From: a virus
IMG/VR virus record: IMGVR_UViG_3300036046_000008
DNA length: 48,745 bases
Reading direction: 5' to 3' (one strand)
Under the pieces are notes generated by a model, which had not been told where the DNA came from, made no database searches, and worked only from the letters and a program-made list of their open reading frames with translations. Shown here piece after piece: positions 17,581-48,745 of this stretch; the first letter of the stretch is position 1; each line of letters begins with the position of its first letter. The position numbers and the translations under genes were made by a program.

Positions 17581-17593
17581 GGTGCTCCTTTCG

Positions 17594-17630
17594 GTAGAGG
17601 GTGTCATTATATGACGTGTATCAATCGCGG
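17594..17630 (-). promoter_or_regulatory. Conserved promoter-like element copy (variant)
   Basis: Minus strand CCGCGATTGATACACGTCATATAATGACACCCTCTAC then GAAAGGAGCACC ATG. Confidence 0.5.
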
Positions 17631-29625: not shown

Positions 29626-29702
29626 TTTGACTGTCTCCTTCCTGGTTAGTGTCAACGGCCTGGAGTGCCGTTTCGGATTTGATAAGACTCATTAGAACCC
29701 CT

Positions 29703-31616: not shown

Positions 31617-32489
31617 TTACCGTCTGGGCCGAGTTGCACCAACCACAAACAGCGCGGCCCCCGCCCCTAGAAGCCATTTTTCGCCTGTTGTACGTCTCTG
31701 AGCAATTTTGAGTTCGGGCGAATTAGCAAATTCCTTGGCGTCACGACGCAAAATGCGGAAGGCCTCTTTTCTCCCGCCAGTAACTAGCGATTTATAAAAA
31801 TTCAATTCGTTCCGAAGAGACCGAACTTGATACGCTTGGACTGTTTTCCGGGCAGCCAAAATTTCGGCGTCCCGAGCCTGTCTCCTTTGCGCACGAGTCG
31901 GGCCGGATGGGCCGCTAGATGACGCTCGATCCTTTCTCACGCCCCAGCGCATTCCTTTGACCCCGTAATGCGCGAGCTCTTCTGAAAAACGTTGGGCCTC
32001 ATTTGCCGACGGTTCAGAATCCATGCCAAGTCCTTTCGTCAAGGTAAACAGAGGTTCATACCTAAATTTTCGATTGGAGATTTCTGTTAAACTTTCGCCC
32101 CTGGCCATTCCTTTAACGCCGTAATGAGCCAATGAGCTATCCGACAGACTCCGCACGGATTCAGGTACAGGCTGAACCATCTGCTCATAAAGCTTCACAA
32201 GCGTTCGCGCCGCTTTTGTTTTCTCGTCTTTCGTCGCCTGCAAAGGCGCACGAGCTCCTGCAAGTGCAGCCGCAGCCGCAAATATTGCGTTCTTATTCAG
32301 CACGCCGCTGGGCGTCTTCACTGGCAGCTTGCATTGGGCTTTGGAGCGCAATTCATTCCGAGCCGGACGAATCAAACACGCCTCATACCATTGCTCTAGA
32401 GTGTAATCAGACGGCGAATATCTGATCCAGGGGGGTAGTGTCCACCAACTTTCCTCCTTACGCAATAGCAATAGACCATCCCGTGCCAT
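31617..32489 (-). CDS. head-module protein with two LAHYGVKGM(R)WG motifs and C-terminal TM (start uncertain)
   Basis: Track ORF 31617..32597; N-terminal 36 codons look non-coding and overlap 32458..33195; motif repeated at aa about 158 and 193 of track ORF. Confidence 0.45.
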   Translation of the reverse strand: MARDGLLLLRKEESWWTLPPWIRYSPSDYTLEQWYEACLIRPARNELRSKAQCKLPVKTPSGVLNKNAIFAAAAALAGARAPLQATKDEKTKAARTLVKLYEQMVQPVPESVRSLSDSSLAHYGVKGMARGESLTEISNRKFRYEPLFTLTKGLGMDSEPSANEAQRFSEELAHYGVKGMRWGVRKDRASSSGPSGPTRAQRRQARDAEILAARKTVQAYQVRSLRNELNFYKSLVTGGRKEAFRILRRDAKEFANSPELKIAQRRTTGEKWLLGAGAALFVVGATRPRR

Positions 32490-33195
32490 TACCTGACGAA
32501 GCCGACCAGGTGACACTAGCAGCGGGAATTGTTCCGGCAGAGGAAATAGGCGCCTGCGCGGCAACCGCATGGGCGCTCGATCCAGACGACGCGGCAAGAG
32601 CCTGATTTATTAAGGTGTGACCGGCTGGCAGAGTAACGGACGTCGACTTATTGTCTTTGCGAACCCAAAGTCTAACCAACAGCCCTTCGCCGTCGGCCGT
32701 GACCGCTGGGGCGGGCGCTACCGTGTTCGTATCTGGCTGGTTTTGGGTAGATCGAACAAACGACGTCAGGTTACGCACAGCCACGCAAACGTGGCTACAT
32801 TTTCGACTAGCAGAAAGAGACCAAGACGGCATCTCAAGGCCGTCAAAATATGTTGCTACATAAAGCGCTCTTTGGGTGGTCCCCTGGTTTGAAAGCAAAT
32901 TATCCTCAGTCCAATCCGAATGGTCGGACGTTACGGTCACACCACCCGAAGAATCAGATACTGACATCCCGCACACCAACCAGTCTCCATCCTGCAGACC
33001 GGAAGGAAGATCGGGGGTATAAGATGTTAAAAAGTTTGTGGCAGACGCAGACGAGCCTACAACGATAGGCTCGGTAGGAGGCTCCGGCTCTTCGCCGCTC
33101 TCATAAATAAGATTAGTCCCCACATAAGCCTTTAGAAGAGGAGAAGTTCCCGCGTACATTGCGGTCACACTCGAACTACCAGCACGAACAGTCAT
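32458..33195 (-). CDS. hypothetical Ser/Thr-rich protein
   Basis: 245 aa; ATGA overlap with terminase stop. Confidence 0.5.
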   Translation of the reverse strand: MTVRAGSSSVTAMYAGTSPLLKAYVGTNLIYESGEEPEPPTEPIVVGSSASATNFLTSYTPDLPSGLQDGDWLVCGMSVSDSSGGVTVTSDHSDWTEDNLLSNQGTTQRALYVATYFDGLEMPSWSLSASRKCSHVCVAVRNLTSFVRSTQNQPDTNTVAPAPAVTADGEGLLVRLWVRKDNKSTSVTLPAGHTLINQALAASSGSSAHAVAAQAPISSAGTIPAASVTWSASSGNGTGWSIAIA

Positions 33196-34937
33196 TCGAA
33201 CAACCCCTTATGAACTTTGTAAGCTACGTAGGCATCCAGCAAGGCCGAGAAATTATCGATTTTTGCATCTTTTCGCTTCTTGTAGAGCTTGCGATTGCCG
33301 TTCGTGTCTTCCAATGTTACCGCATTGCCCATCGCAAACGACATCAGTAACTCATCAAATATAAGCAATCGCTCATCCGCAAGATTTCGTAACTCGCCAA
33401 GCGGAACTGATTCGGTACGGACGCCCTGCGGAACTTTCTCCACACCAAACGGACCATTTTCTGAGATCCATCGATCAATGAACTCTTTCGCATTATACGG
33501 GTCATACCCTACCGCCCGAATATCGTAGTCTTGAGCGGCAATAAACTCATCGAGGTCTTCATAAACTTCCATCAGATCAAGAACCGCTCCATCTAAAACA
33601 TGGAGACTACCCTCAGAAATAAACTCGTCGTACTTCAGACGCATTGCCGCTGGAAGCTTCATCATTGTTAAAGAGGTAATATAACTACGAGTCTTGACGC
33701 CCCACGAACCATCCCGTAACGGGAATAAAAACGTAAAAGCACAGAAATCGTCGCCTTGGGAAAGATCGACGCCCATACTACAGGCCATCTTCCAGAAAGT
33801 CCGCGACGAATGCGGCAACGTCTGTTCGTAAGTGAAGAAGTAAGTGAACCCCTCCATGGGAATACCAAAACGCTTCGCTAAAATATCGTTTCGAGCAGCG
33901 GGCACCTTTTCAGCTCGCTCTACATCCAAATGATACGTGTCATAGCTTACCGTGATGCCAAGATTGGGGTTAGCTTTTACCCAAAGCTCCGGGTGATTTA
34001 CCTCGTCGAGAGTATCAAGTTTATAATGCCAAATCGAAACATGAGGCGCATAATACTCCCCTTTGAGAATTGATGCAAGTTCAAGCTTAACAGTGTCGCC
34101 CGAGCCGTTCCGCACCGTTCCTTCAGAACTAATCGCAACGATAACATAATCGTCAATTTTAGACGCACCTTGCTCCAGCGCCCCGATAATATCTTCGCGC
34201 AAATCGCCGGACAACCACTCGTCAATTGTATTAACTTTCGATCGAAGCCCTTGAACTTTATCAATGGTCATCGGGCGAATCTCGAGAAGCGAACCCGTCA
34301 AGAAATTCTCGATCCCGCGTTTGGTTGCGACGAGTTTCTGTCTGAGAGCACGATTACCAGTAGTGTTCTGAAGCGAGCCCTCGGTCAAAAACTTGAACAA
34401 AGGGCCACGGGCCCGAACAATGGACGTACGGATAGGAGACAAGACCTCTTCGGCTTGTTTCATCGTAAGCGCAGTTGTCACTTGATGCGTAGTGGTTGGG
34501 TCCACATTTAAAAAATAACTTTGAATGACGGAGGCGTACATAGACTTGGCTGCGCCCCGCGCCACGATCAAATACTGTTTATTTGTCAAGCGTTTCTTGA
34601 TAACCTTATGAACATAGTGACCGCCGCGCCCGTCTTCGTTAGGCTGATAGACGGTGCGATCCACAAAATAATACCATCCTAGTAACTGTTCAACCCAAAC
34701 TTTAAAAGAAAGCATAAGCCACAAATTACGCCCATCAGTCAGAGTCAGTTCATTCTCGCAATAACGAATAAAGCCCTCGACCGGCCCGTCGTCGTAATAA
34801 ATATTAGGGTTTGCAATAAGCTCGTCAATCCGGTTCATCTCAAGCGAAATTTCCCGATTCACAGGGATCTCGCCTCGGAGCACCGCGGATCTAAATTCAT
34901 CATAATATACGGGAACCGCAGTATTAGACAAGCTCAT
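33192..34937 (-). CDS. terminase large subunit
   Basis: 581 aa; N-terminal ATPase-like region (LIVARGAAKS) and C-terminal nuclease-like region; AGGTGGTGA RBS. Confidence 0.75.
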   Translation of the reverse strand: MSLSNTAVPVYYDEFRSAVLRGEIPVNREISLEMNRIDELIANPNIYYDDGPVEGFIRYCENELTLTDGRNLWLMLSFKVWVEQLLGWYYFVDRTVYQPNEDGRGGHYVHKVIKKRLTNKQYLIVARGAAKSMYASVIQSYFLNVDPTTTHQVTTALTMKQAEEVLSPIRTSIVRARGPLFKFLTEGSLQNTTGNRALRQKLVATKRGIENFLTGSLLEIRPMTIDKVQGLRSKVNTIDEWLSGDLREDIIGALEQGASKIDDYVIVAISSEGTVRNGSGDTVKLELASILKGEYYAPHVSIWHYKLDTLDEVNHPELWVKANPNLGITVSYDTYHLDVERAEKVPAARNDILAKRFGIPMEGFTYFFTYEQTLPHSSRTFWKMACSMGVDLSQGDDFCAFTFLFPLRDGSWGVKTRSYITSLTMMKLPAAMRLKYDEFISEGSLHVLDGAVLDLMEVYEDLDEFIAAQDYDIRAVGYDPYNAKEFIDRWISENGPFGVEKVPQGVRTESVPLGELRNLADERLLIFDELLMSFAMGNAVTLEDTNGNRKLYKKRKDAKIDNFSALLDAYVAYKVHKGLFE

Positions 34938-34947
34938 TGGTCACCAC

Positions 34948-35358
34948 CTAACCCTTTTTTTTCTGCAACGCCGCTTCTACCTGCGCGTTGAGAGCTTTTG
35001 TTCCCTGCGCAGTGACAACACCCTTAAGAATTTGCTTCCCTGAGTCGAGTGTGATCTCACGCACAAATTTTTGCCCCTCTTTTTTAAATCGACTTCCCCG
35101 GGAAGCACTACGATCAGCTGCCCTCCCAACAAGCTCATTATAAGTTCGTTCTAGCTGGAGACGACGATTAAACGCTTCCAATTCTTTGTTTGAGAGCGGG
35201 TCGGTACTCCCACGATTACGACGAATTTTGTCTGTTGTAGCTTTAACCGCAACTACATCAGGTGAATCGGAGTCGATTTGGGCACGAGTTCGACGAACGC
35301 CCCACTTCATACCTTTGATGCCGTAGTGAGCCAGAATATCAGAATCAGCCATTGTCAC
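34948..35358 (-). CDS. hypothetical protein with N-terminal AHYGIKGMKWG motif (terminase small subunit position)
   Basis: 136 aa immediately upstream of terminase large subunit; motif shared with 31617..32489 and the N-terminus of 44540..47221. Confidence 0.45.
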   Translation of the reverse strand: MTMADSDILAHYGIKGMKWGVRRTRAQIDSDSPDVVAVKATTDKIRRNRGSTDPLSNKELEAFNRRLQLERTYNELVGRAADRSASRGSRFKKEGQKFVREITLDSGKQILKGVVTAQGTKALNAQVEAALQKKKG

Positions 35359-35974
35359 TCCTTGCTGGTCGCCAAAGAAAAGTCACAATTACGGCCCGAT
35401 GGTCGGCGTTTCGGGGTTTATGCGTCTGGGTTTGAATTGGAAACCATCGCCCCGTTTTAACAGCTCCAACGTAGTCAATCGATTGGCCCTTTGGGCCGGA
35501 AGGAACGGGTTTGGACCAGCGACCCAAAGGCGACAGATGGCGCAGACGGGGCGCGCCGATTTTCCCGTTAAAATCTCCGCCTAAGATCCGATCAGAATTG
35601 CCTTCGAACCATCGAGCGACTTTCAGTTCCTGTTTATCGTATTCAATCCGATTGCGTGGTTTTCTGTTATAAAAAGCAGGCAAATGGACCGCCCCGATTC
35701 GAGCATGTCGGTTCGCCTTCAAAAAATGCTGCCAGATCAGCCAACGCTCACTGTAAAACGTTGGCGATGAAAGTCTAAAGTAACCATTATAAATAGCATT
35801 AATCCTGCGCGGGTCCCAATAGAGCACGTTGCTACGGGCCGGCGCAGGACGGAAGTATCGGCAACCATCCGGAACATTTCTTGCCGGGTCCCGATCCGTA
35901 TTTTCTTGCCCCAGCACAACATCGCAACGGTATTTTTCAAAAAGAATCTTATAATCGTGTGCGTGCGGCATCAA
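35345..35974 (-). CDS. endonuclease/exonuclease/phosphatase (EEP) family protein
   Basis: 209 aa; LGQENTD, GGDFNG and ADHRAV motifs in EEP order. Confidence 0.5.
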   Translation of the reverse strand: MMPHAHDYKILFEKYRCDVVLGQENTDRDPARNVPDGCRYFRPAPARSNVLYWDPRRINAIYNGYFRLSSPTFYSERWLIWQHFLKANRHARIGAVHLPAFYNRKPRNRIEYDKQELKVARWFEGNSDRILGGDFNGKIGAPRLRHLSPLGRWSKPVPSGPKGQSIDYVGAVKTGRWFPIQTQTHKPRNADHRAVIVTFLWRPARSDNG

Positions 35975-36045
35975 CCGATGCGCACTGTTAAACGTGGCGA
36001 CAATTAGTTTAGGGGGCGGACTTTCGCCCGGTTCTCCGCCCCCGT

Positions 36046-36270
36046 CTAAGGGCGTTCAATGCAATCGCCGACATCAAGATTGTTAGGATCCAAACCAGGA
36101 TTTGCTTCCTTGATTTGATCAACGGTCACTCCCCACTCTTTGCTCAAGGACCAAAGCGTATCGCCTTTCTTGACCACATGCCCATCGCACGCCTCAGGAG
36201 TGACGTCTTCAATCGCGTCCGCAGTATCCCGAAGACCCTGAAGGAGAGCTCTCCATCGGGCATTACTCAT
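36046..36270 (-). CDS. LysM domain protein
   Basis: 74 aa; VVKKGDTLWSLSKEWGVTVDQIKEANPGL LysM-like block. Confidence 0.6.
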   Translation of the reverse strand: MSNARWRALLQGLRDTADAIEDVTPEACDGHVVKKGDTLWSLSKEWGVTVDQIKEANPGLDPNNLDVGDCIERP

Positions 36271-36309
36271 AGTACACAGTCTCCTTTGTTTGGACGGACG
36301 ACAAGATTA

Positions 36310-37131
36310 TTAGCCATCTTCTTCCATTTTGACCAGCTTGGCTTCAAGACGTTGAACCGTCTTCTCGATCTGCCGCAACCGCGCGTTCCCCATCATCGGA
36401 CTTGGATTGTTGGGGTCTCTCTTCTCGCCCTTAGCATTGTAGTCTCCTAGGGTCCGATTAATTCTTGCCGCAATAGCTTCAATGTCTTTCTCACTGAGAG
36501 CCACGTCTGTTTCGCCTCCTTCTTCCGAATTCCCTTGAGCAAGTCTGAGAACCTGGGGTAGATTCAACGCGCCAGTGTCCCAGTGCGAATTCTCTGGAAC
36601 CGAGGCATGCGGCAAATGGCCGCGAAAGGCTTTATAGGCTTGACCGGACAACCTCTGAGGCGCGCTCAGCCCATACCTGGGGTTGCGAGTAAACTTTGGT
36701 ACGAGAGCCAGAGGAATCCCCCAATGTTTATTCAACCAGAGCGCAATGCGAGCCAGAAACGCTAGGTGCTTCTCAGTGAAGTCTCCGACCCAAAGTCCTC
36801 GGTAACGATCGGACAGAACACGATCCGAAAACGAAATGACCTCAATCTGAAAAGCACGATCCGTGTTAGTCTCCACGCCGCCTGGCAGATTTGCCAAGGC
36901 GCGAGAAGACATATTAGCCGGGAAATGTTGACGAATCTGTTCAGTACGAGGATCAATGGTGATAGTTGGAGCGGTAGAGCCCCCAGAATAGCCCGGCCAG
37001 GAAGTACCCTCTGTCGTATGCCAGACACACTTGTACAACGCGTCCGACCAGACGACGCCGCGGTACTTATTCGCATACCACTGCGAAGACCGGTCTGCTC
37101 CAGGCAAATAGAGTTCAGTCATCGGCTTCAC
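36310..37131 (-). CDS. putative endolysin (amidase-like peptidoglycan hydrolase) with C-terminal coiled coil
   Basis: 273 aa; WHTTEG and NSHWDTG blocks; adjacent to LysM gene. Confidence 0.45.
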   Translation of the reverse strand: MKPMTELYLPGADRSSQWYANKYRGVVWSDALYKCVWHTTEGTSWPGYSGGSTAPTITIDPRTEQIRQHFPANMSSRALANLPGGVETNTDRAFQIEVISFSDRVLSDRYRGLWVGDFTEKHLAFLARIALWLNKHWGIPLALVPKFTRNPRYGLSAPQRLSGQAYKAFRGHLPHASVPENSHWDTGALNLPQVLRLAQGNSEEGGETDVALSEKDIEAIAARINRTLGDYNAKGEKRDPNNPSPMMGNARLRQIEKTVQRLEAKLVKMEEDG

Positions 37132-37315
37132 TCGCTTCGTCGAGTACGTCAGAGTCGACGGTCAGATCACTGTAATCCTCGTCCTCGACCGCCATATAGG
37201 CGTACTCCTTGTCGGAGAGTTCACGATCCGCATGAGCAGACGCAGACTCGAACGCGATTGGCTCATCTTCGATCACGGCGAACACCTCAATCTGTTGTAG
37301 GGAGGGAGAGGCCAT
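37115..37315 (-). CDS. small acidic protein
   Basis: Track ORF 66 aa, very acidic. Confidence 0.3.
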   Translation of the reverse strand: MASPSLQQIEVFAVIEDEPIAFESASAHADRELSDKEYAYMAVEDEDYSDLTVDSDVLDEASEADD

Positions 37316-37568
37316 ACGGCCAATTTTCGGACTGATTGACCCTTATTGAATCCATTATCACCTTAACCTCATGGTCAAATATCTGCAACCACACTAACGA
37401 CACAGCACAAACAAGACTAAGAACCAATGCCGAGACTAGGATTAAAGAAGCATCAGTAACAAGATGATGACCACCAGGATCAAAGTCATCACGCCAATAA
37501 AATCCGAACGCACCGATCTCACCTCCAGCCGTAGACGACGATCTACCCATACTTATGCTAACCCCCAA
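37287..37568 (-). CDS. membrane protein (holin candidate by position)
   Basis: Track ORF 93 aa with one long hydrophobic helix; just upstream of the amidase-like gene. Confidence 0.3.
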   Translation of the reverse strand: MGVSISMGRSSSTAGGEIGAFGFYWRDDFDPGGHHLVTDASLILVSALVLSLVCAVSLVWLQIFDHEVKVIMDSIRVNQSENWPYGLSLPTTD

Positions 37569-38710
37569 GTATTAGCCTTGGCGGCTTGTACCACATAGTT
37601 CCAAGACCACGACAAACGGAGCCGACCATCCGTAAACTGCGCGTAATCGGCTGCACCATCGTTACGTAGCATCAAGCTGGAAAAAGAGCCATCGCCAAGG
37701 CGTTGCCCATTAGCGTCGGAGATGTTGTACCACTTACCGTTCCCACCAGACGTGGAGGTTCTGGAGACGGAGTTCTGTCCACCAGGCTCTGGTCCTCCGG
37801 CGTCCGAATTCGAGACATGGATATTCGTTGTTACCGTTCCACTTGTACCAACGCCCGCCTTCTTGAACAAATATACCTCAGCGCTCGTGCAAGATCCTTT
37901 TAACTGACGATCCACACCGTTCGTGCCGAGACGATCGCGTAAGGCTCCGCGGACACCGTTACTACCATAGAAAATAACACCCTTATAGTTTCCGTAGGCG
38001 GCTGTGAAATAACCCTGTGCCGCGATGTTTGCTAGCCAAGACCAGCCATCAACTGGACGCCAAGAATCGACTTTACTCGGCTCAAAGACCATGTCCTGTC
38101 GGCTACCTTGATCGCGCTCCTCAGACCGCCCCGAATAGTAGGTGTAAATAGAACTGTTCAGCCCAAGAATCCCATTTCGGAACGGTCGGACATAAATATT
38201 GATAGATGTGTCTTCAGAAGTCGACACAGCTTTGCTGGTGCCGGTCTGAGTGCCAATAACAACGTTGTTCCGGCGAATTTCATAATGCGTCGCGCCAGGA
38301 ACGACGGCCCAAGACACGGTCACATTCGTCAGCGTTCTGGAAGAGGCTGAAAGCGCGCCAACTTTCCCTTTGGGAATTACCGCATTAATACTTACTGGCG
38401 ACTCAGTCCCAGGGACGCCAAATATGATCGGCGTAACCCGGTATGAGTAAGACGCACCCCAATCTAACCCGGAATCATTGTAAATGCGGCCGACTTGAGT
38501 CGCGATAAGCTCACCATTTCTACGAAGCTCATACAACTCAGCGTTAACCACTTCGTCCCAAGACACAGACAGTGTGCCCGCCGAAGACACCGAACTAATC
38601 TTGGGTTGCCCACCTTCGGCGAGGGGCCAAACTAGATCCTGCCCAAGCGCCACGAATAAGATTTGTTGCTCGCCGAGCTTGACATCGTCCGCAGTATTGA
38701 GAAGAGGCAT
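37553..38710 (-). CDS. minor tail protein with two fibronectin-III-like repeats
   Basis: 385 aa; repeated SVSWDEVVNAELYELRRNGELIATQ / VSWAVVPGATHYEIRRNNVVIGTQ blocks. Confidence 0.5.
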   Translation of the reverse strand: MPLLNTADDVKLGEQQILFVALGQDLVWPLAEGGQPKISSVSSAGTLSVSWDEVVNAELYELRRNGELIATQVGRIYNDSGLDWGASYSYRVTPIIFGVPGTESPVSINAVIPKGKVGALSASSRTLTNVTVSWAVVPGATHYEIRRNNVVIGTQTGTSKAVSTSEDTSINIYVRPFRNGILGLNSSIYTYYSGRSEERDQGSRQDMVFEPSKVDSWRPVDGWSWLANIAAQGYFTAAYGNYKGVIFYGSNGVRGALRDRLGTNGVDRQLKGSCTSAEVYLFKKAGVGTSGTVTTNIHVSNSDAGGPEPGGQNSVSRTSTSGGNGKWYNISDANGQRLGDGSFSSLMLRNDGAADYAQFTDGRLRLSWSWNYVVQAAKANTWGLA

Positions 38711-38713
38711 GAG

Positions 38714-39220
38714 TCACCCCACAACGACATAAAGCGTATCAGGATCTTTAGTAACAATCGCGTCATACTCGGCAAGGGTCCCGCTCCACCATTGGCCTGC
38801 CTCACCTTGAGGCCCCTGCTCACCTTGAGGCCCCTGCTCACCTTGAGGCCCCTGCTCACCTTGAGGCCCCTGCATCGGCCCGATGTTGACCCAATCAGAA
38901 CCATCCCAAATATAACCGTTGTTGGTGTCTTCGGTAATGTACAAATCGTTCAGATCAGCGCTAACCGGCAAATTTGCAAACGATGGCACAACTCCTACAA
39001 TAGTAACGCCCTCTCCACGAGGCCCAGGCGGACCGACAGGACCTTGGATGCCCTGAGGACCAGTCGCCAACGCTTCGCCGAGCTCTGAGAAGGGCGTAAT
39101 TCCATCCCCAATATAAAAAACTCTAAGATCGGTAACGAACCCGATCTCACCGTCTAGCAAGATAGGATTTGAGTTGAGCCATTCGCTTTCAGTTCCTCGC
39201 CGAATTCGAATTACATACAT
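38714..39220 (-). CDS. tail fibre protein with collagen-like (GPQGEQ)x4 repeat
   Basis: Track ORF trimmed to ATG with AAGGAG RBS; N- and C-termini paralogous to 40245..41804. Confidence 0.6.
   Translation of the reverse strand: MYVIRIRRGTESEWLNSNPILLDGEIGFVTDLRVFYIGDGITPFSELGEALATGPQGIQGPVGPPGPRGEGVTIVGVVPSFANLPVSADLNDLYITEDTNNGYIWDGSDWVNIGPMQGPQGEQGPQGEQGPQGEQGPQGEAGQWWSGTLAEYDAIVTKDPDTLYVVVG
38801..38872. repeat. Perfect tandem repeat, 18 bp x 4 (CTCACCTTGAGGCCCCTG)
   Basis: Seen in sequence; encodes GPQGEQ collagen-like triplets in 38714..39220. Confidence 0.9.
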
Positions 39221-39240
39221 CAAACGCTCCTTACCCGTAG

Positions 39241-40224
39241 CTACTTGGAGAGCCACGCACAATCGGAAGAAGCCAGCGACTTAAGAAATTCCCGCGTCCG
39301 TGGTTCACCATCAGCCAGATACCAATTAACGCCCGGACGGTTATTCCGCGTCGAATTAAACCAAGCCACAGTCATAAATCGTTTGGAAGCCACGATAACC
39401 GACCAAGTAGAAACCCATTCGTCAGCAGTATGCGTACCAGTTTCGCCGAAACCAAACAAACCAGCGTACCGAGCCCGCTCTGCCCACTTCAGAATTCGGC
39501 CCACGCGGTTTGCGGGCCCATCTTTGGGGTCGCTAAGGGTGCCGCCGTGATAGACGTCCATTCCTAAAAGCTTCCAGCGCTCCAACAAATCTTGGGGGAA
39601 CCATTCAGCAATCTCAGTGTCAGTCCACGTGTCATGCGCGCCCCAAGGAAATCCATTCATGATAGGGCACAACGTTACTTGGCCAGTGCCACCAAGCCGA
39701 TCCGCAACATCCAGAAGACGCCGCCAGGTACGTGTATAGTGATCATACGTCATGTCGCCCACGGGCTCATGCGCCCACGTGATCAATGCCGGTTGAGACC
39801 ATGTCTGGTACTCCAAAACCCGACGCTCAAAATCAGCGTCAGTAAAATTAAGGCCCGAAAACGATCCCCACGGCAACGAGCCCCGTGCCCACGCCGTCTG
39901 CGCCACTGACCGTTCTTTTTCAAGCTCGGTCGGCTTACAATAATAACGCTGCACACCAGGCAAGCCTAGACGAGCAACTTCATCTTCGTAAGTAGGCAGA
40001 GGGTGGGCCCATCCGAGATAAATCTTGCTCGGCTGATGACCCGGGATCACCCCTTCGGAAGGCTCGCCGTCACCGGGATCGGAACCGCCGTCTTCGTCAG
40101 GCTCGTCTAGACGGGCAAGTACTTCCATTTTGAAGTCCAAAAACTGCTTTTCAAAATTCTCTTGCTGCGCCTTTGCGCTGGCCTTATACTCTTCAAACTC
40201 AGCCGAGGTCGGGACTTCAACCAC
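39241..40224 (-). CDS. tail-associated protein, possible glycoside hydrolase-like domain
   Basis: 327 aa, Trp-rich; between two fibre genes; function is a guess. Confidence 0.35.
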   Translation of the reverse strand: MVEVPTSAEFEEYKASAKAQQENFEKQFLDFKMEVLARLDEPDEDGGSDPGDGEPSEGVIPGHQPSKIYLGWAHPLPTYEDEVARLGLPGVQRYYCKPTELEKERSVAQTAWARGSLPWGSFSGLNFTDADFERRVLEYQTWSQPALITWAHEPVGDMTYDHYTRTWRRLLDVADRLGGTGQVTLCPIMNGFPWGAHDTWTDTEIAEWFPQDLLERWKLLGMDVYHGGTLSDPKDGPANRVGRILKWAERARYAGLFGFGETGTHTADEWVSTWSVIVASKRFMTVAWFNSTRNNRPGVNWYLADGEPRTREFLKSLASSDCAWLSK

Positions 40225-40244
40225 AACGATCTCCTTTGACGGGG

Positions 40245-41804
40245 CTAGACGATTGCATACAATGTGTTTGGATCTTTAGTGCCAATTGCATCATAAGCGG
40301 CCTGGGACCCTACCCATTGACGCCAAACCGTCTGGCCATCTTCTTTAATGCGGCCACCAACGAGATTCACGTCGTTAGCTGGAGTAAGCTGCAAATCCCC
40401 GCCAGTTAACTGCTCGACAACCGTCTGGTCAGCCTCTGTAGAATTTCGAATCTCCAAAGTGCTGCCCACGGTACGAATGCCTTTGTTGAAGTTAACTCGC
40501 CCAAGAACCCCAATCCGCATTTGAACAGCGCCAGCGAGATTCAAAACTTCGAGCATGTTGCCGGAGCCGCCCTCGGCTTGATCCCGAGCAATGATCTTCA
40601 TAGCCACTTCACCAGGAGCGGCGTCATTCGACGTCCTAAGGTTCCCCTTCTCGTTGACCCACGTCGCTCGTTTACCCCCGTACCGAATGTCCACAATGTC
40701 AGCGTCGGTAATGGTGGTGGACGTCGCCGTCCGCTCAACCACCAAACCGCCTACATCTTTACTCGAATTGATGATTGTCATCTTGCGGCGCAGCGTCGTT
40801 CCGTTTAGGCCCACACCCATAATAATGTCCCCAACATTACGGGCCTCGCGGACCTCAAAGAAGTCACCCAGAGAAGCTGGTGTCGACCCACTCTTGAACC
40901 CATGCACACGCAAAGCCACAGTGCTATCTTTGGCCGGATCGAACCTGCCTTCGCCGAACTCATTAAATCCACCAGTGCGGACACCATCGTACTTGAAATG
41001 CAACCGATCAGGCCAGTTCGCAGCCGGCGACGCATCGTTCACAATATTGAACTGTGCAACCTGCATGTTCGTGGGGTCGGTAATGGCATAATCCGCGTCA
41101 GTCTTGGGGCGCTGTTGCCACAAATATCGAGCGTTAGCGGTGCCCTCAGTGATACCGCTGCCGCCAACCAGAATAGCCCAGGCCCCGTTCTGTCTTACAT
41201 ACTGTTGGCCATCATTAGGAGCCTCCTCGACTGCGTCGTCTGGGGCGACTGTTACAGCCCAAGTCCCGTTTTGCCGCACGTATTGCGATCCATTACTTGG
41301 GGCGTCTCTCAAATATTGCGTATGAGGATTGGTGGCAGCGGTGTGCTGCGACAGCAAAGTCGACGCCACGCCGACGTTCTCTTTCCCGGCCAGAGCAGTA
41401 TTAAAAACCGCGCCGTCGGCAACGGACAAATATCGCTCATCAATATCCAGCCAGAAATTGTTATACCGCGCATAGATGGTGCCATCGGCGGGGGCATCGG
41501 TAATTCCAGCCCCTCCCCCACCGACTACGGCAGTCCAGGTCCCATCTCGCCGAGCGTATTGTTCGCCATCCAGGGGTGCTTCTTCAACAGGTCCTGGCGG
41601 GCCAACCGGTCCGTCTTCACCGGGAGGACCAGGAATCCCTGTAGTATAAGGGAGCTCAGTCCAAGGAGTAACCCCATCACCGATCTTGAACTGATTAAGA
41701 TCTGTGACATATGCAGGTTCACCGGAACTGAGAATTGGGTTAGCCAGAGTCCACTGTGCATCGGTGCCCCGGCGAAGACGAATAGTGAAAGGTTGAATTG
41801 TCAT
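40245..41804 (-). CDS. tail fibre protein with short collagen-like segment and triple DG.QYVRQNG.WA repeats
   Basis: 519 aa; GIPGPPGEDGPVGPPGP; three internal repeats; termini paralogous to 38714..39220. Confidence 0.6.
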   Translation of the reverse strand: MTIQPFTIRLRRGTDAQWTLANPILSSGEPAYVTDLNQFKIGDGVTPWTELPYTTGIPGPPGEDGPVGPPGPVEEAPLDGEQYARRDGTWTAVVGGGGAGITDAPADGTIYARYNNFWLDIDERYLSVADGAVFNTALAGKENVGVASTLLSQHTAATNPHTQYLRDAPSNGSQYVRQNGTWAVTVAPDDAVEEAPNDGQQYVRQNGAWAILVGGSGITEGTANARYLWQQRPKTDADYAITDPTNMQVAQFNIVNDASPAANWPDRLHFKYDGVRTGGFNEFGEGRFDPAKDSTVALRVHGFKSGSTPASLGDFFEVREARNVGDIIMGVGLNGTTLRRKMTIINSSKDVGGLVVERTATSTTITDADIVDIRYGGKRATWVNEKGNLRTSNDAAPGEVAMKIIARDQAEGGSGNMLEVLNLAGAVQMRIGVLGRVNFNKGIRTVGSTLEIRNSTEADQTVVEQLTGGDLQLTPANDVNLVGGRIKEDGQTVWRQWVGSQAAYDAIGTKDPNTLYAIV

Positions 41805-41813
41805 GAGCTTCTC

Positions 41814-42206
41814 CTAGGGGCTGCCGCCGTCGATCAGCACAGTGTCAAACGGGAGGGGTGGACTCCAAGCATTGCCCTCGCGATAAACGTTTAGGCGCCA
41901 TTCCATCTCTCGGAGCTGGTCCTCAAGCGCATTGATGAGGAACGACGTATTCGGAGGATCGAAAAGTAGACGCACGCGAAGATAGACGTAAGACTTAACC
42001 GGATTGAGCATCTGAGAATTGCCCAGAAGCTCTTCCCAAGTCGTTTCGGGCCCTTCGACAGAGAACCCCTCTGCAGGGCCGATCCCCAACTGACTTACGT
42101 ACATCAACGCCGAATTAATGTGCGTCATAATGTCTAAGTCGAAGACGGTGTACTCCTCGGCAAGACCAAGAATCTTCTTTGTACTGGTCAAGATACTGTC
42201 AGTCAT
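41814..42206 (-). CDS. hypothetical protein
   Basis: Track ORF 130 aa. Confidence 0.5.
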   Translation of the reverse strand: MTDSILTSTKKILGLAEEYTVFDLDIMTHINSALMYVSQLGIGPAEGFSVEGPETTWEELLGNSQMLNPVKSYVYLRVRLLFDPPNTSFLINALEDQLREMEWRLNVYREGNAWSPPLPFDTVLIDGGSP

Positions 42207-42245
42207 TGGGGCGAACCTCCTTAAAAGCTTCCATTTTGATTGGTG

Positions 42246-42653
42246 CTACCAAAGCTTAGTATCATTAGGACGGCGGGGAACATAGGGTTTCGGGAGTAAA
42301 TTCCGATCGCCGTAATGGATTGCGTTATGAGTATCATGAGTCGTAGTGATCAAGAACTCCGGATCCAAAACCTCGTCCCGTCCGTGAACTAAATCTTCGA
42401 CAGTGACTGGGTTCATATGATGAATGTAAGCACGCTCATAAATCTCATACCCGACGACACCAAGATCACAACCCAGATCTCTTGCAATGACGTGGGTCCG
42501 AAGTGCTCGCCATTGAGCCGACATGTAGAAGCGTTGATTCAACCAACGATCGTGTCCGAACGTAGACAACCCAACAGATCCACGCAGAACCAAATAGTCA
42601 AATCTATCTTCAAACTGACTCATCTGAATCAGCTCGGTATAACGTCTAACCAT
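42246..42653 (-). CDS. HNH endonuclease
   Basis: IHHMNP ... HDTHNAIHYG HNH-like motif; track ORF 42246..42710 trimmed to ATG with GAGG RBS. Confidence 0.55.
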   Translation of the reverse strand: MVRRYTELIQMSQFEDRFDYLVLRGSVGLSTFGHDRWLNQRFYMSAQWRALRTHVIARDLGCDLGVVGYEIYERAYIHHMNPVTVEDLVHGRDEVLDPEFLITTTHDTHNAIHYGDRNLLPKPYVPRRPNDTKLW

Positions 42654-42975
42654 TGTATGCCTCGTCAGTGTGACCGGAATACGACCGCATAGCGTCGAGA
42701 ACGCTTTCATAGAGCTCTTCTACTCGCTTGGCCGACTCCAACAACTCCGTCTTAGAATCTAGCAACTTGTTCTCACGGGCCAGCTTTTCCTGTTCCAAGG
42801 CTTCACGAGTGGACCCAAGACGCAGATAGTGAGTAATCACTTGCGCGGTGGCAGTACCATCTCGGAGCTGCTTCTCAGCGAGATTAGTAGCTAACAACAC
42901 GAGGCGCTGCTCTTGTTCTTCAGGAGTCCGTGCCGGCGGGCGCCGCGGTTCCGACTCCTTGCGGCGTTGCGCCAT
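42646..42975 (-). CDS. hypothetical protein (charged, coiled-coil)
   Basis: Track ORF 109 aa. Confidence 0.45.
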   Translation of the reverse strand: MAQRRKESEPRRPPARTPEEQEQRLVLLATNLAEKQLRDGTATAQVITHYLRLGSTREALEQEKLARENKLLDSKTELLESAKRVEELYESVLDAMRSYSGHTDEAYNG

Positions 42976-42987
42976 AACAACTCCTTT

Positions 42988-43422
42988 CTATCCTTTGTGG
43001 CGACGGAGTGTCTTTCGTCCCCCATGCTCAATGTGCATCGAGGTCGCCACCAAACCGCCGGTCAGAATTAGAAGCAAGACCACGACTTCGCCGACGCCAT
43101 CGATCAAGTTAGTTTCGAGCCCTGAGAAGAATAAGATGATGGTTAAGATCGCTCCGAAAACCATCATCAGATAGGCCCAACGAGTCACAACGACAAAGCG
43201 ATTAAAACTATGGCCCCACATAAATACCAATGCAACCACCGACAACGTACCCACGAAATACTCAAGAGTCCGTTCGGCGGAGCCTACGATAAAAAACGTT
43301 GGCGAGAAACCAAACACGATCAACGCAAGGTTGTAAGCCGTCAGAGAACACACAGCGGTCCAAAAAGCTTGCTCACGGCCAAACAAAGCAAAGAAACGCT
43401 GCTCAATCGGTTTTGGAGTCAT
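42988..43422 (-). CDS. multi-pass membrane protein (paralog of 43597..44046)
   Basis: Track ORF 42988..43590 trimmed to ATG with GAGAAGGAAAG RBS; shares WAYL block. Confidence 0.45.
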   Translation of the reverse strand: MTPKPIEQRFFALFGREQAFWTAVCSLTAYNLALIVFGFSPTFFIVGSAERTLEYFVGTLSVVALVFMWGHSFNRFVVVTRWAYLMMVFGAILTIILFFSGLETNLIDGVGEVVVLLLILTGGLVATSMHIEHGGRKTLRRHKG

Positions 43423-43594
43423 CTTTCCTTCTCTCTGGCAAGGGATGTTTGGCCTCCCAAAGATCCATTCGATGTTTGATCCACCTGCGTAGAGTCTCGA
43501 TGAGAATCGTAACCAACCCAGCCAACGCAAAGTAGAGAAGAGCCAAAGGATCCGTTCCTGAAGGCGGTGCCTGAAAAAACAGTAAAACAACCAT
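43403..43594 (-). CDS. small membrane protein
   Basis: Track ORF 63 aa; ATG after GGAGG RBS; TM helix then charged tail. Confidence 0.4.
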   Translation of the reverse strand: MVVLLFFQAPPSGTDPLALLYFALAGLVTILIETLRRWIKHRMDLWEAKHPLPERRKDDSKTD

Positions 43595-43596
43595 GG

Positions 43597-44046
43597 CTAC
43601 CTCCGCCTGAGATAGCGATCAAGTTGAGAAGAAAGAGGACGACCAGCGCCACCGTCTAGCAAGTGCGCTCCTGCCGCCCCGACAATGCCGATACAAATTG
43701 TAAAACCAATTACAATTTTAGCGTTAGGCGGGACAATGACCTGAGTAGGTGCAACTATCAGGAACGCCACAAGGACAGTAAGCCCATAACCCACAACAAA
43801 GAGATAGGCCCACTGGTTCAGAAAAATATAGGGGCGCTCCAACAAACGGCCTATGAGAAGAATCGTAAGAACCACGCCAACAACCGCAAACACGATTTCG
43901 ATGGACGTCAACGTGTTAACTTCCGGTTCGAGCCCGGGCAATGGTCTAAAAATAGGAAGAAGCACAAACAAGATCAGAGTGATCTGATAGATAACAAGGT
44001 CCGCAATGATAGCTATGACCGTTGTTACGTCTCTACGGAGTTTCAA
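43597..44046 (-). CDS. multi-pass membrane protein
   Basis: 149 aa, 3-4 hydrophobic helices; TTG start after TAAGGAGGGG. Confidence 0.5.
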   Translation of the reverse strand: MKLRRDVTTVIAIIADLVIYQITLILFVLLPIFRPLPGLEPEVNTLTSIEIVFAVVGVVLTILLIGRLLERPYIFLNQWAYLFVVGYGLTVLVAFLIVAPTQVIVPPNAKIVIGFTICIGIVGAAGAHLLDGGAGRPLSSQLDRYLRRR

Positions 44047-44267
44047 GGAGCCCCTCCTTAAAAGTTTTGAGGCACTTCGACAGGGGTTTTACACACTTTC
44101 TACGACCAAAAATCAACTTTTAAGGACCGTCAAGTCTGCGAAGAAAGCTTTTGGCATAGTTTGGCCCCACTTTTACCCCCTCAAACGACCCGCCGGAGAA
44201 ATTTTAGGGACGCGGCGATATGGAGGGGGTCTCGGTTTTGGCGGGCCCTCCCCCCTATTTTAATTTT

Positions 44268-44531
44268 TTAATTCGTTGTTTGCGACGAGGAGTAAACTTT
44301 TCGGTATTTACCTAAAAGGTTGTAGGTCACAATCTCGTCAATAGCTTGCTGTACTGCTTCTTTCTGTTGTTCTTCTGAAAGTTCGAAGGAAACTCTCGCG
44401 ACTCGAGCCAGCAGGCTAAGAGTGTGGTACCCCGATCGACGATCAAAAGCTTCCCACTCTTTGAAGTGGGTGAAAGGATTCCACGGATTGTCAGTAGTAG
44501 TTAACATCGCGTAAGTGTTATCACTCATCAC
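44268..44531 (-). CDS. hypothetical protein
   Basis: Track ORF 87 aa; GTG start, TAGGAGAA RBS. Confidence 0.55.
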   Translation of the reverse strand: MMSDNTYAMLTTTDNPWNPFTHFKEWEAFDRRSGYHTLSLLARVARVSFELSEEQQKEAVQQAIDEIVTYNLLGKYRKVYSSSQTTN

Positions 44532-44539
44532 TCGTTCTC

Positions 44540-47221
44540 CTAAGCGAGACTAGTCTTAAGAGTGGTGAGACTTACCCCAATAGCGTCAGCCACTTCTGCC
44601 TGAGTGTAGCCCTGCTTAAGCAAAGCCTTAGCCTGAGAGGTCTTCGTAGAAGTCATCAAAAGAGATGTACGTGGAGTGGCCAATTCCTTTACCTTCTTTG
44701 CATCGGAGTTCCTTAGAATTGATTCGAGCTTACTAGTTGTGATAGCGCCTGCTTGAATCGCTTCCCATTCCTTAGGCGAGATGTCGATACGAGCTTTCCC
44801 TGCACCAGTCCTAGCTCTCGCCTCGACCAACGCCATACCATCGATCTTCTTCTTCTCCTCCCGAGTCATGTCGGGATTGTCGCGCCGTTTTGCAGCCCGG
44901 ATAGCATTGGCTACAATTTGAGCCTGGCGTTCTCGAGGGGCGTTCTTCTCAGCCAGGTTAAGCTTGGCATCCAGCGACTTAACTTCTTTCTCATACACCT
45001 TCTTAGCTGAGGGAGAATAGGGAATGTTTTTGACCGCAAGACTTTCTTTCCTAGCCCGATTCGCAAGCGCTTTCATCCGATTGGAGTAAGTCGCATACTC
45101 AGTCTCAATTCGCGTCCCCGCAGACAGCGTAAATGCGTCGTCGGTTTCCGCAAGCTTCTCGCTTCGTTGTGTCTTCGAGACGACTTTACCAGTCTTGTCG
45201 ACGTAGGTACGGCCAGTGTACTCATACACTTTACGTCCTGTGGCGGGATCAATCGGGCCACCTTTAGACATACGCCGCGGCTGGCGTTCGGGAACATCAA
45301 CGCGAGAACCTGCAAGAGAGATCAACGTGGATGCGCCTTTATCGGATCGCCCCAGATACTTCTCTTTTAGAGCAGGGATTCCGTTGTCTAGATACGATTG
45401 TTTGTAATTCAGATTGTGTTTCTCAGCATCGATAACAACCATGGAATGTTTAACAGCTCTAGCAATTTCCGTTTGTGTTGCGCCCATGATAGTCATGTCA
45501 GTAATCAGATTTGAGATGGAACCCATCTCCATCTGTTTACGATCACTGCGCATCGTCGGCATACCCTCATAGGCGGGATACTCTCTGATGGGATCGAAGT
45601 TCTGCAACGCCTTCAGAGGCGGAGAGGTTTTGACTTGCCCTCGATCGTTCGGAATGACAATGACCGTATCCCCATCAAAGTCTGCACCAGACAAACGCTT
45701 AGCTACCTCAGCGTTGATACCAATCGCGTCTGGGGCGTTACCCAACAGTTTCTTTGTTGCCGGGTCCCGATTGTTAACTACCAACTCAGGAATCTCAAAC
45801 GTCCCACCGTGAGGGTGCCGGACTAGCACCACACGTTCGCCATTACGATACGTAGGAGCATACACCTCAGTAGGCTTCATCGAATTCGACGGAATAAGAA
45901 CTTTAGTAGACTGCCTTGGCATGGCGGCCGCAGCAAGATGTACGGCGGCGGCGTCGGCCTCATCACCGAACTTCCGCAACAGGTCGCGCTTGATGACAGG
46001 ATTTGTCAACGACATAATCTCATCGAGCGCAGTTTCGTTTTTATTGTAGAGAAAATCAAGCTGCTGCCTGGCAAGCTTTACATCCTGCTTAGAAAGAAAC
46101 TGAGATGACAACTGTCGGTTCCAAGTGTCCCAGGTTCCTTCTTCATAGATGAGGTTCATAGCAGATGTAACTTTTGGCTTGCCATCCGCACCCAGCGAGA
46201 TGATTTGGCGATTAATGGATGAACCGAATGGGTTGTCCATGTCAATCTCACCCGTCTTGCCGACGGTCTTCATAGGCTTCATAGCGTCAAGCTTATTGCC
46301 CGTACTCGACTTATTAGTATTAAAAACCAAGTCGACGCCGGCAGGCAGATCATCTTTGTAGACAGCCATCCCTTTGAGAAAGTGCGTCCCATCAACAGCA
46401 ACCCGGACCTGCGCGTAATTACCTCCACCAAGTGACAAATCAGCCACGCCCGGGCGCACAAAGATCACACCATCGGCATCGGCGCCGCCATCTTCTGCGT
46501 AATTAATTCCAATTCGCTTTGAATCCACCGACAATGGAGGAAGAAGGCCAAGGTTTGTGCGACCTCCATCATCAGAGAACTCATTGATCTGACGTAGATT
46601 CGCACGGTTTGCCCACGCTTCCTTCTGCGTTACCGACTCAGGAACCAGTACTTTATACTCGGTCAACAAGCCAGTTCCAACCTGCTCAATCTTGAACGAC
46701 CGAGTTGCATAACCTTCCTCGGAAAGCATTGCAACGGCCGCCGCAAGCTTTTCCTTACTGATACCCAACTGACGCTCGACGCCGGTACCAATATCGATCA
46801 TACCTTTTTCGTCAACGTTTGACTTCAACACGTCTGCAATGTTGCGCAACTGCTGAGTCTTATCAAGCTGGCCGGCTTTTAACAGCTCTCTAACAGAACT
46901 CTCATTGATACCCAACCGCTCCCCGATGACCGTATTCGCGGCGCCTTTTGCTTTGAGGCGCTGCGCAAACGTAATATCAGCCGCTCTTGCTTCCGCCTTA
47001 GCAATCGACTTCAGCGCCCGAAGTTCTTTAGTCGTGAGACCAACGCCTTCCGCAACCTGAGCTTCTGTCATCCCTTGCTTCTGCATTGACGATACGTAAT
47101 CCAAAAAAGATTTACTACGATTTGCGACGTTGCCGCCGGAGCCCCAAGGATAACGACCAGAACGACGAAGAATGCCGTAATGCTGAAGGGAATTGGTCTC
47201 ATCTTCCGTAATAACGAACAA
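44540..47221 (-). CDS. Non-canonical RNA polymerase-like protein (multisubunit-RNAP beta-prime-like double-psi beta-barrel motifs, YonO-like) with N- and C-terminal HTH-like segments
   Basis: 893 aa; VRHPHGGTFEIPELVV ... GADFDGDTVIVIP at aa 466-523 resembles beta-prime R.P..H..FEP...NADFDGD; GRSDKGAST at aa 624-632 resembles beta GRHGNKGVIS; HTH-like segments at aa 50-115 and 865-893; TTG start with GAGAGGAGA RBS. Confidence 0.55.
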   Translation of the reverse strand: MFVITEDETNSLQHYGILRRSGRYPWGSGGNVANRSKSFLDYVSSMQKQGMTEAQVAEGVGLTTKELRALKSIAKAEARAADITFAQRLKAKGAANTVIGERLGINESSVRELLKAGQLDKTQQLRNIADVLKSNVDEKGMIDIGTGVERQLGISKEKLAAAVAMLSEEGYATRSFKIEQVGTGLLTEYKVLVPESVTQKEAWANRANLRQINEFSDDGGRTNLGLLPPLSVDSKRIGINYAEDGGADADGVIFVRPGVADLSLGGGNYAQVRVAVDGTHFLKGMAVYKDDLPAGVDLVFNTNKSSTGNKLDAMKPMKTVGKTGEIDMDNPFGSSINRQIISLGADGKPKVTSAMNLIYEEGTWDTWNRQLSSQFLSKQDVKLARQQLDFLYNKNETALDEIMSLTNPVIKRDLLRKFGDEADAAAVHLAAAAMPRQSTKVLIPSNSMKPTEVYAPTYRNGERVVLVRHPHGGTFEIPELVVNNRDPATKKLLGNAPDAIGINAEVAKRLSGADFDGDTVIVIPNDRGQVKTSPPLKALQNFDPIREYPAYEGMPTMRSDRKQMEMGSISNLITDMTIMGATQTEIARAVKHSMVVIDAEKHNLNYKQSYLDNGIPALKEKYLGRSDKGASTLISLAGSRVDVPERQPRRMSKGGPIDPATGRKVYEYTGRTYVDKTGKVVSKTQRSEKLAETDDAFTLSAGTRIETEYATYSNRMKALANRARKESLAVKNIPYSPSAKKVYEKEVKSLDAKLNLAEKNAPRERQAQIVANAIRAAKRRDNPDMTREEKKKIDGMALVEARARTGAGKARIDISPKEWEAIQAGAITTSKLESILRNSDAKKVKELATPRTSLLMTSTKTSQAKALLKQGYTQAEVADAIGVSLTTLKTSLA

Positions 47222-48689: not shown

Positions 48690-48745
48690 CGAACCTCCTC
48701 GATCGGATGGAAATTAACGGTTTTGTAGGGTCGGGAAAAAGGGTC

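Follow-up and report, generated by a model that had tools for sequence, protein, structure and literature searches.

A peptide shared by a phage RNA polymerase and head-module proteins as a possible virion-incorporation tag

Why would the RNA polymerase of a siphovirus begin with a short peptide that it shares with proteins encoded around the terminase and portal genes? The question is raised by the viral record IMGVR_UViG_3300036046_000008 of IMG/VR, a stretch of 48,745 nt that we analysed whole and refer to as the window; all tag, gene and open reading frame (ORF) coordinates below are positions in it, and its main genes all lie on the minus strand. Window positions 1-127 are an exact repeat of 48619-48745 (127 nt), which marks the contig as a complete genome, assembled as a circle, of ~48.6 kb (~48,618 bp). 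A first-pass annotation of these letters had noticed an HYG…WG peptide in three proteins. It proposed a capsid-targeting or ejection signal, with the polymerase packaged and injected, or else a common enzymatic or binding motif. Translation of the three minus-strand ORFs recovered the reported strings where they had been placed. The polymerase carries the variant LQHYGILRRSGRYPWGSG, with a longer loop, at residues 12-29 (47135..47188) of its 893-aa product (44540..47221). A small protein (34948..35358) carries the canonical form ILAHYGIKGMKWGVRR at residues 8-23 (35290..35337), and a 290-aa protein (31617..32489) holds a degenerate copy that has lost the Trp, LAHYGVKGMARG (32097..32132), and a canonical copy, LAHYGVKGMRWGVRK (31932..31976). 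The gene neighbours were likewise as described: the small protein is encoded directly upstream of the large terminase subunit (33192..34937) and the two-copy protein between terminase and portal (30285..31577), an interval that also holds a 245-aa ORF. A six-frame search of the 48.7 kb with the pattern H[YFW]G.{1,12}[WYF]G gave matches in these three proteins only.

The two head-module proteins belong to PF23847 (DUF7211), a domain of unknown function in Pfam with a 25-position model and a curated gathering cut-off of 27 bits. The small protein, which has 136 aa from a GTG start and 134 aa from an ATG at 35352, scores 47.1 bits, and the 326-aa stop-to-stop ORF around the two-copy protein (31617..32597) scores 69.4 bits over two stretches, both above the cut-off. 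The two internal copies of the 290-aa protein have local domain scores of 35.5 and 51.9 bits with a hidden Markov model (HMM). The polymerase peptide lies outside this model, which found no match on five polymerase N-termini even at E<=10 and none on the full 893-aa protein at E<=0.1. The link between the two forms thus rests on custom profiles.

These profiles indicate that the polymerase peptide and DUF7211 are specifically related in sequence. The canonical form reads [DE]x[FL]LxH[YFH]G[VI]KG[MQ][KR]WGVR[RK], and the polymerase form, with its longer middle loop, LxHYG[ITV]x(R/H)x(0-5)SGRYPWGSG; shared are an acidic lead-in, L-x-H-aromatic-G-[IVT], a loop of variable length and W-G. Aligned with hhalign, the polymerase N-terminus profile and the DUF7211 profile gave a probability of 95% and a score of 30.5, against a mean of 8.0 (standard deviation 2.4, maximum 22.9) for 200 column shuffles. 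Both profiles were also scanned reciprocally, as HMMs, against every window ORF that reaches 40 aa. Outside its own members, the DUF7211 profile matched the polymerase best, at the motif (E 0.25, next noise 3.3); the polymerase profile, itself apart, matched the two DUF7211 proteins best (E values of 0.003 and 0.006, with the next noise at 2.2). Beyond the tag, the scan found nothing else in common between the polymerase and the small DUF7211 proteins. Of 150 independent multi-DUF7211 proteins, 67 were matched by the polymerase-derived profile at E<0.01, as against none of 150 reversed decoys; 210 of the 222 above-decoy matches fell exactly on DUF7211 motifs. The second position of the motif varies over overlapping ranges: polymerases have H[Y/R/T/I/E]G and DUF7211 copies H[Y/F/H/W/R/K]G, with Y and R common to both. 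The match between the two forms thus exceeds chance, with clean decoy and shuffle controls. No PDB sequence was matched by either the motif profile or the polymerase. A word-indexed protein search, run with a motif profile of 40 columns, yielded only 32 short fragments, and these gave no domain architectures.

On the polymerases, the peptide is nearly invariant. It was present in all 120 listed homologues of ~60% identity (119 with HYG, one with HFG) and on 11 more distant polymerases, 131 sequences in total. The more distant examples include the N-termini of 1706 (LQHYGTKRHSGRYPWGSG), P092 (LLHYGTPRHSGRYPYGSG), Oral contig 89 (LKHYGTKRHSGRYPWGSG), D_HF5_2C (LLHRGTPHQGNVPHSGRYSWGSG), BitterVaud1 (MAHTGIPHTGSVPHSGRYKWGTG), Count (LAHIGVLRRSGRYPWGSG), Paella (IRHEGILRKSGRYPWGSG) and FP_oengus (ILEHYGTKRHSGRYPWGSG). 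Length varies only between the two halves of the tag, and residues 14-29 contain eleven invariant columns in an alignment (A3) whose members are ~60% identical overall. Residues 1-30 are at the same time the least confident part of the AlphaFold2 model, with predicted local distance difference test (pLDDT) values of 30-39. In the model of the small protein, the tag has pLDDT 50-61 and no secondary structure, and the helices reach 88-92. The tag is thus predicted to be unstructured in both proteins. Near-invariance outside the fold is what one usually sees in a short linear motif with a binding partner.

The first-pass call of an RNA polymerase-like protein was correct. The 893-aa protein matches PHROG 4291, annotated as RNA-dependent RNA polymerase, over its whole length (1280 bits), and Pfam adds a weak match to the RdRP family PF05183, helix-turn-helix (HTH) matches at both ends and sigma-70 region 4 at the C-terminus. 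The catalytic metal-binding loop GADFDGD lies at residues 512-518 (45668..45688) and the RxP element (VRHPHG) at residues 467-472 (45806..45823); in the 50 homologues of alignment A3, R468, P470 and S511-D518 are invariant. These positions were matched by spacing to the universal residues of two-barrel polymerases listed in PMC2919709. The AlphaFold2 model (mean pLDDT 75.9) was matched by Foldseek to the PDB structures of QDE-1 (E 2e-8, probability 1.00), P74 gp62 and the gp64 RNA polymerase entry 8f72 (both at ~2-4e-7) and plant RDR2, all with low template modelling scores of ~0.3. Judged from sequence and model, the protein is a single-chain two-barrel RNA polymerase of the QDE-1/YonO-like type with predicted RNA synthesis activity. 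The family itself is already known from 1706-like and actinobacteriophage siphoviruses. Phage 1706 is among the YonO-like proteins listed by Ruprich-Robert and Thuriaux 2010 (PMC2919709), and Koert et al. (bioRxiv 10.1101/842583) showed the polymerase to be a signature of an actinobacteriophage-Firmicutes supercluster, in which phages of Streptomyces, Arthrobacter, Gordonia and Rhodococcus are united with those of Lactococcus and Faecalibacterium. The window protein agrees with this HTH-flanked RdRP/YonO-like family in the DxDGD loop, the HTH at both ends and the location at the right genome end after an exonuclease gene. A tblastn search found the polymerase in 250 phage records, every one below 60% identity to the window, and the protein database holds at least 8,000 relatives.

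The proteins that carry the DUF7211 form are numerous and modular. An exhaustive profile search (E<=0.001) collected 42,982 representative DUF7211 proteins. The top 150 range from 220 to 1570 aa and contain between one and five copies, usually two to four, at spacings of 150-300 residues; 90 of the 150 have their first copy in residues 1-40. Among 13 of these proteins taken as a sample, most of the bodies that separate the copies are unrelated to one another, a few being tandem paralogues, and the peptide is far better conserved than the bodies attached to it. In many relatives the tag is internal and marks the start of each module. A Pfam scan of 66 DUF7211 proteins identified 2H/LigT phosphoesterases (nine), GNAT acetyltransferases (four), a papain-fold glutamine deamidase toxin (one) and a sulfatase (one), the remaining proteins showing DUF7211 only. 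Judged by these domain matches, the tagged 2H/LigT, GNAT and glutamine-deamidase modules are candidate injected effectors. A recurrent fusion in the protein encoded before the terminase places the 2H/LigT-type domain upstream of a DUF7211 copy (Rhodococcus phage ReqiPoco6, locus L002, 2248-3864; Gordonia phage Untouchable, L016, 7492-9204; nine of the 66 scanned). All six terminase-portal genes of ReqiPoco6 start with FLAHYGVKGMKWG, and in the product of its pre-terminase gene the motif comes after a LigT domain; in Untouchable, four proteins are tagged. Within a genome, tag copies use a different codon at 43-61% of the positions with identical residues, which argues for selection on the peptide and not on a DNA repeat, and rules out the motif being a DNA-level repeat or a recombination boundary.

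Among the tagged proteins of each genome, one bears a second conserved element, the helix LSxxELxxxxxRLQLExxY, found also in 1706 ORF7, in the DUF7211 protein of FP_oengus and in Untouchable gp15. In the window this is LSNKELEAFNRRLQLERTYNEL (35131..35196) of the small protein, with R64, L67 and E68 invariant in 64 homologues, and the 136-aa protein is the minimal form of this helix-bearing core protein. The tagged protein encoded between terminase and portal often has another conserved block, DAxEFAxAKMxYGxGAG (L016 11809-12351; P0122, P0147, P0149; window 31617-31800). It also often ends in a hydrophobic segment, which the 290-aa protein shares (WLLGAGAALFVVGA in the window) and which hints at membrane insertion after ejection.

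The location of the tagged genes is strongly constrained. We surveyed 65 IMG/VR loci in which terminase and portal are both present. Of their 157 tag copies, 96 are upstream of the terminase gene and 59 fall between it and the portal gene, so that 155 occupy these two positions; the other two come after the portal. Recurrent neighbours of DUF7211 genes are those of a Phage_connect_2 protein, the large terminase, the portal and a fusion of Peptidase_S78 with Phage_capsid, the last adjoining multi-DUF7211 genes in loci L017 and L019. Both forms of the peptide occur together in all 11 fully checked genomes (window, Scap1, ReqiPoco6, ReqiPepy6, 1706, BitterVaud1, Count, Paella, Untouchable, FP_oengus and MT835495), and in 13 of 13 IMG/VR loci that span the genome junction the polymerase lies a few kb upstream of a DUF7211 gene on the same strand. 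Among isolate phages, tblastn matches to DUF7211 came from the same genera as those to the polymerase. No clear case of one form without the other was found among the checked genomes; in three IMG/VR loci, the 7.7-10 kb of upstream sequence show no polymerase. Four apparent exceptions, BitterVaud1, Count, Paella and MT835495 (a gut contig), were rejected as phages with DUF7211 only, the polymerase being present in each. The very large siphovirus lineage that carries the tag includes 1706-like phages of Firmicutes and phages of Streptomyces, Arthrobacter, Gordonia, Rhodococcus, Microbacterium, Curtobacterium and Bifidobacterium. Cohesive ends have been reported for 1706-like phages (PMC4110766), and the physical ends of the isolate relatives lie between the gene of an 87-aa protein that follows the polymerase and an HNH region. 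The polymerase gene stands directly upstream of the packaging and head block, across the physical end of these relatives.

Virion association of both tagged classes is supported by the annotation of orthologues in Lactococcus phage 1706. The GenBank record of its own authors (EU081845; Garneau, Tremblay and Moineau 2008) labels orf6, 7, 11, 12, 17, 20, 21, 71 and 75 as "structural protein" and orf13 as "major structural protein", whereas functions deduced from similarity are written there as "putative". ORF75 is a full-length orthologue of the window polymerase (37% identical, E 3e-177). ORF7 is the orthologue of the small DUF7211 protein: a protein of 462 aa with two DUF7211 copies (H-R-G and H-K-G in place of H-Y-G), whose N-terminal module (residues 25-105) matches the family alignment of the small protein (A5) with 97% probability. 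The gene order is also the same. The records of ReqiPepy6 and ReqiPoco6 repeat the 1706 structural labels. A 2008 paper on phage 1706 reportedly identified its structural proteins by gel and mass spectrometry.

Taken together, we propose that the HYG…WG peptide is a portable tag for virion incorporation or ejection and that the polymerase is packaged, a reading to which we give a probability of roughly 45%. The peptide would be a short linear motif, disordered on its own. During head assembly it would dock onto a component of the portal or neck, or onto the procapsid interior. The portal dodecamer (30285..31577) would be a first guess for the partner, because of the gene adjacency and the few tagged modules per genome. 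Docking would enclose the polymerase and the accessory tagged proteins in small numbers, and at infection these proteins would leave through the tail, with the DNA or ahead of it. The polymerase, with its own HTH and sigma-region-4-like domains, could then start phage transcription without the host enzyme, and the tagged enzyme modules of relatives could act as injected effectors. The anatomy of the peptide fits the targeting or ejection signal put forward by the first-pass annotation: near-invariant, modelled as disordered, attached to unrelated modules and flanking the terminase. Such a signal is not proven by this, and the packaging of the polymerase gains indirect support, from the label shared by 1706 ORF75 and ORF7. 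A common enzymatic motif, the annotation's other option, is unlikely for a disordered peptide of ~15 residues on unrelated bodies; a common binding motif is compatible with a tag. A wider form of the proposal, in which DUF7211 and the polymerase variant are a universal load-and-eject tag of one of the largest siphovirus lineages, docking on the portal or neck, and every carrier (a self-sufficient two-barrel RNA polymerase, 2H phosphoesterase, acetyltransferase or deamidase toxin) is an effector delivered by the virion, is conceivable, and we lean against it.

Several points weigh against the proposed tag. The 1706 structural labels are annotation in a GenBank record and concern a relative of the window's phage. 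Strict N-terminal placement holds for the polymerase and the 136-aa protein and fails for the tag overall: enzyme fusions (ReqiPoco6 gp015, for one) and the 290-aa protein have DUF7211 within the chain. The strongly shared part amounts to just ~10 residues plus WG, aligning the two forms needs insertions and deletions (HYGVKG-MKWG is gapped against HYGILRRSGRYPWG), and the Pfam model is blind to the polymerase peptide. Low AlphaFold2 confidence is no proof of disorder, and the docking partner is a candidate named from gene order. Co-occurrence of the two forms may reflect shared ancestry of the lineage only. The minimal 136-aa protein is without obvious cargo and may itself be a structural or assembly protein.

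Other explanations would account for parts of this evidence. The motif could be a recognition or cleavage site of the prohead protease, the multi-module DUF7211 proteins being polyproteins cut at each motif during head maturation. This would agree with a motif at the start of each module in proteins with two to five copies, with modules that are separate genes in ReqiPoco6 and fusions elsewhere, and with the constant company of the Peptidase_S78-capsid fusion (L017, L019). An aromatic and basic block of 15 residues is, however, unlike a short cleavage site, and a cut at residues 12-29 of the polymerase would remove little, and we consider this explanation unlikely. By analogy with the capsid-targeting sequence of phage T4, a processing site could also be compatible with a targeting role. 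Equally, the peptide might act after ejection or in the infected cell, binding a host target (membrane, cell wall, DNA or host polymerase) or the phage ORF76-like protein, with no part in loading. Its richness in basic and aromatic residues, its predicted disorder, the hydrophobic C-terminal segments of some tagged proteins and the likeness of the enzyme modules to host-directed effectors all suit such a role; it would leave unexplained why the genes lie almost only beside terminase and portal and why both classes are labelled structural in 1706, and we judge it improbable.

A further option, of similarly low probability, is that the resemblance of the polymerase peptide to DUF7211 is convergent or superficial and that the peptide serves the enzyme itself, for example in contacting DNA or the promoter, or in autoregulation. 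The silence of the Pfam model on the five N-termini, the SGRYPWGSG half without counterpart in DUF7211 and the position of the peptide directly before an HTH domain favour this, but the profile comparisons are specific in both directions with clean controls, the second motif position varies over overlapping ranges in both sets, and the two forms co-occur strictly in every genome checked. Lastly, the DUF7211 protein encoded before the terminase could be the small terminase subunit and the motif an element of the packaging motor that binds terminase or DNA. The gene stands where a small terminase gene is classically found, immediately ahead of the one for the large subunit; the remainder of the protein is helical and the lineage is without an annotated small terminase. 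Small terminases are not virion components, however, and the 1706 orthologue is labelled as a structural protein; a locus can hold as many as seven or eight copies, some of them in enzyme fusions, which is unlike a terminase subunit, and the PHROG 4259 protein (42646..42975) offers an alternative candidate. We therefore regard this identity as very improbable.

If the HYG…WG peptide is a loading tag, it has partial counterparts among known systems. The capsid-targeting sequence of phage T4, attributed to work by Mullaney and Black in 1996, is reportedly a short peptide that directs unrelated internal proteins into the head; it is said to be strictly N-terminal, to bind the scaffolding core and to be removed by the prohead protease. 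The likeness lies in a short peptide common to otherwise unrelated particle proteins, with the mechanism being proposed here, and the difference in that our peptide can be internal and repeated. We know of no sequence similarity between the two. SPP1 gp7/MuF proteins, with the MuF polymorphic toxins, are minor head proteins that are encoded beside the portal gene, carried in the capsid and ejected, in some phages fused to variable toxin or enzyme domains. MuF domains are folded, of ~100 or more residues and encoded after the portal gene, unlike the ~15-25-residue DUF7211 peptide, encoded before the portal and around the terminase. No MuF match was obtained in Pfam scans of the window and of 66 DUF7211 proteins.

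RNA polymerases carried in virions for the transcription of early genes are known from N4 (gp50), the crAss-like phage phi14:2 (gp66) and Thermus phage P23-45 (gp96) (10.1101/2020.03.07.982082; PMC10770324). Like the window protein, gp66 and gp96 are relatives of cellular two-barrel polymerases. These virion enzymes, however, are parts of giants of 2,000-5,000 residues or of fusions with tape measure proteins, whereas the window enzyme is a free chain of 893 aa in an ordinary 48.6-kb siphovirus, with a short tag that looks detachable. The Thermus phage structures closest to it, P74 gp62 and gp64 of 8f72, are non-virion enzymes.

Already known are the polymerase family, DUF7211 as a Pfam entry and the structural labels in 1706, as are loading peptides and virion polymerases as kinds. 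What appears to be new is the connection of the polymerase N-terminus to DUF7211, together with the modular architecture, the association with the terminase-portal region and the tag hypothesis. Within the library searched, we found no paper naming DUF7211 or the motif string, none linking 1706 ORF7 and ORF75 through a shared peptide and none calling ORF75 a packaged polymerase. The available portions of 10.1101/842583 and PMC2919709 likewise contained no N-terminal peptide, head-module link or virion association.

The proteins that enter the cell with phage DNA are known for a handful of model phages, usually through virion proteomics. If the proposed tag is real, the injected proteome of thousands of uncultured phages would become readable from sequence, and the question would be opened for a lineage whose hosts range from Actinobacteria of soil through lactococci of the dairy to Firmicutes of the human gut. 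Ordinary siphoviruses of 40-60 kb would then carry their own transcription enzyme, a trait so far tied, to our knowledge, to N4-like, crAss-like and jumbo phages and one Thermus phage. Tagged 2H phosphoesterases, GNATs and deamidases would be candidate first-strike proteins for counter-defence or host takeover, and a loading peptide of 15-25 residues would be a tool for packaging chosen cargo into phage particles.

The remaining genes of the window complete the picture of its layout. In the order of transcription, an exonuclease gene (47236..47796) comes first, followed by the polymerase gene and that of the 87-aa, 1706 ORF76-like protein (44268..44531; PHROG 4303, E 1.6e-32), which also directly follows the polymerase gene in 1706, Count, Paella, BitterVaud1 and FP_oengus. 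Membrane proteins are encoded between it and a conserved 109-aa helical protein (42646..42975; PHROG 4259) that adjoins the HNH endonuclease gene (42246..42710). The 109-aa protein may be the small terminase subunit of the lineage, in which none is annotated. A virion structural, connector-like protein (41814..42206; PHROG 4247, E 6e-47) follows. Its slot, compared by gene position, holds ORF6 ("structural protein", EU081845) in 1706 and a Pfam Phage_connect_2 protein in relatives; genes of PF24829 adjoin DUF7211 genes in loci L011 and L019. A tail-fibre-like block (37553..41804), far from the tail module, separates the connector-like gene from the lysis and terminase genes; it contains a collagen-like repeat, GPQGEQ x4, at 38801-38872, and a comparable insertion stands upstream of the terminase gene in FP_oengus (L020 6458-8539). 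Endolysin and LysM genes separate this block from a 209-aa ORF (35345..35974) with a weak endonuclease/exonuclease/phosphatase (EEP)-like match (E 1.4e-4, below the cut-off) and no PHROG match.

The terminase (PF20441, E 1.2e-32) has DUF7211 genes on both flanks. The 245-aa ORF (32458..33195) between it and the two-copy DUF7211 gene gave no Pfam, PHROG or NCBIfam match and has no tag, and it occupies the slot of tagged modules in relatives. Downstream of the portal gene (PF04860, E 4.6e-13) come a charged, helical, scaffold-like protein (29703..30278) and a prohead protease fused to the major capsid protein (27670..29655; PHROG 3270 at 793 bits, PHROG 7080). The scaffold-like protein (FILAH...) was considered as a third variant of the tag and rejected, since neither profile matched it; its conserved N-terminal block YDPxKxREYYLRTRxLKGRK is common to Untouchable gp20. 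The tail genes, listed last, include an ORF of 1421 aa (19837..24102), probably the tape measure protein. NCBIfam had no name for any of eight proteins scanned.

Eight to ten copies of a promoter-like element of 36-47 nt, TCGCGAAAATTGCATGNNGTATAATGAGACCCCCTAC followed by AGAAAGGAAG, occur on the coding (minus) strand, only in the non-structural region 786-17,630 (786-832, 2360-2460, 4660-4698, 13524-13578, 14882-14920, 16650-16704, 16909-16963, 17129-17175 and 17584-17638). For the core of these TATAATGAGACCCCCTAC sites, 0.01 matches are expected by chance. The copy at 786-832 lies upstream of the gene run that ends with the exonuclease, polymerase and 87-aa genes. From their sequence, these elements may be phage-specific promoters of early or middle genes, read by the host or the phage polymerase; the element holds a perfect TATAAT, so that a host sigma factor is a possible reader. 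A family of terminator-like hairpins (AAAACTAAAG…CTTTAGTTTT) was found in the non-structural region, at 462-495, 2894-2927, 13201-13243, 16707-16747, 16963-16996 and 17228-17270. Some of them lie near the promoter-like elements, which suggests many short transcription units.

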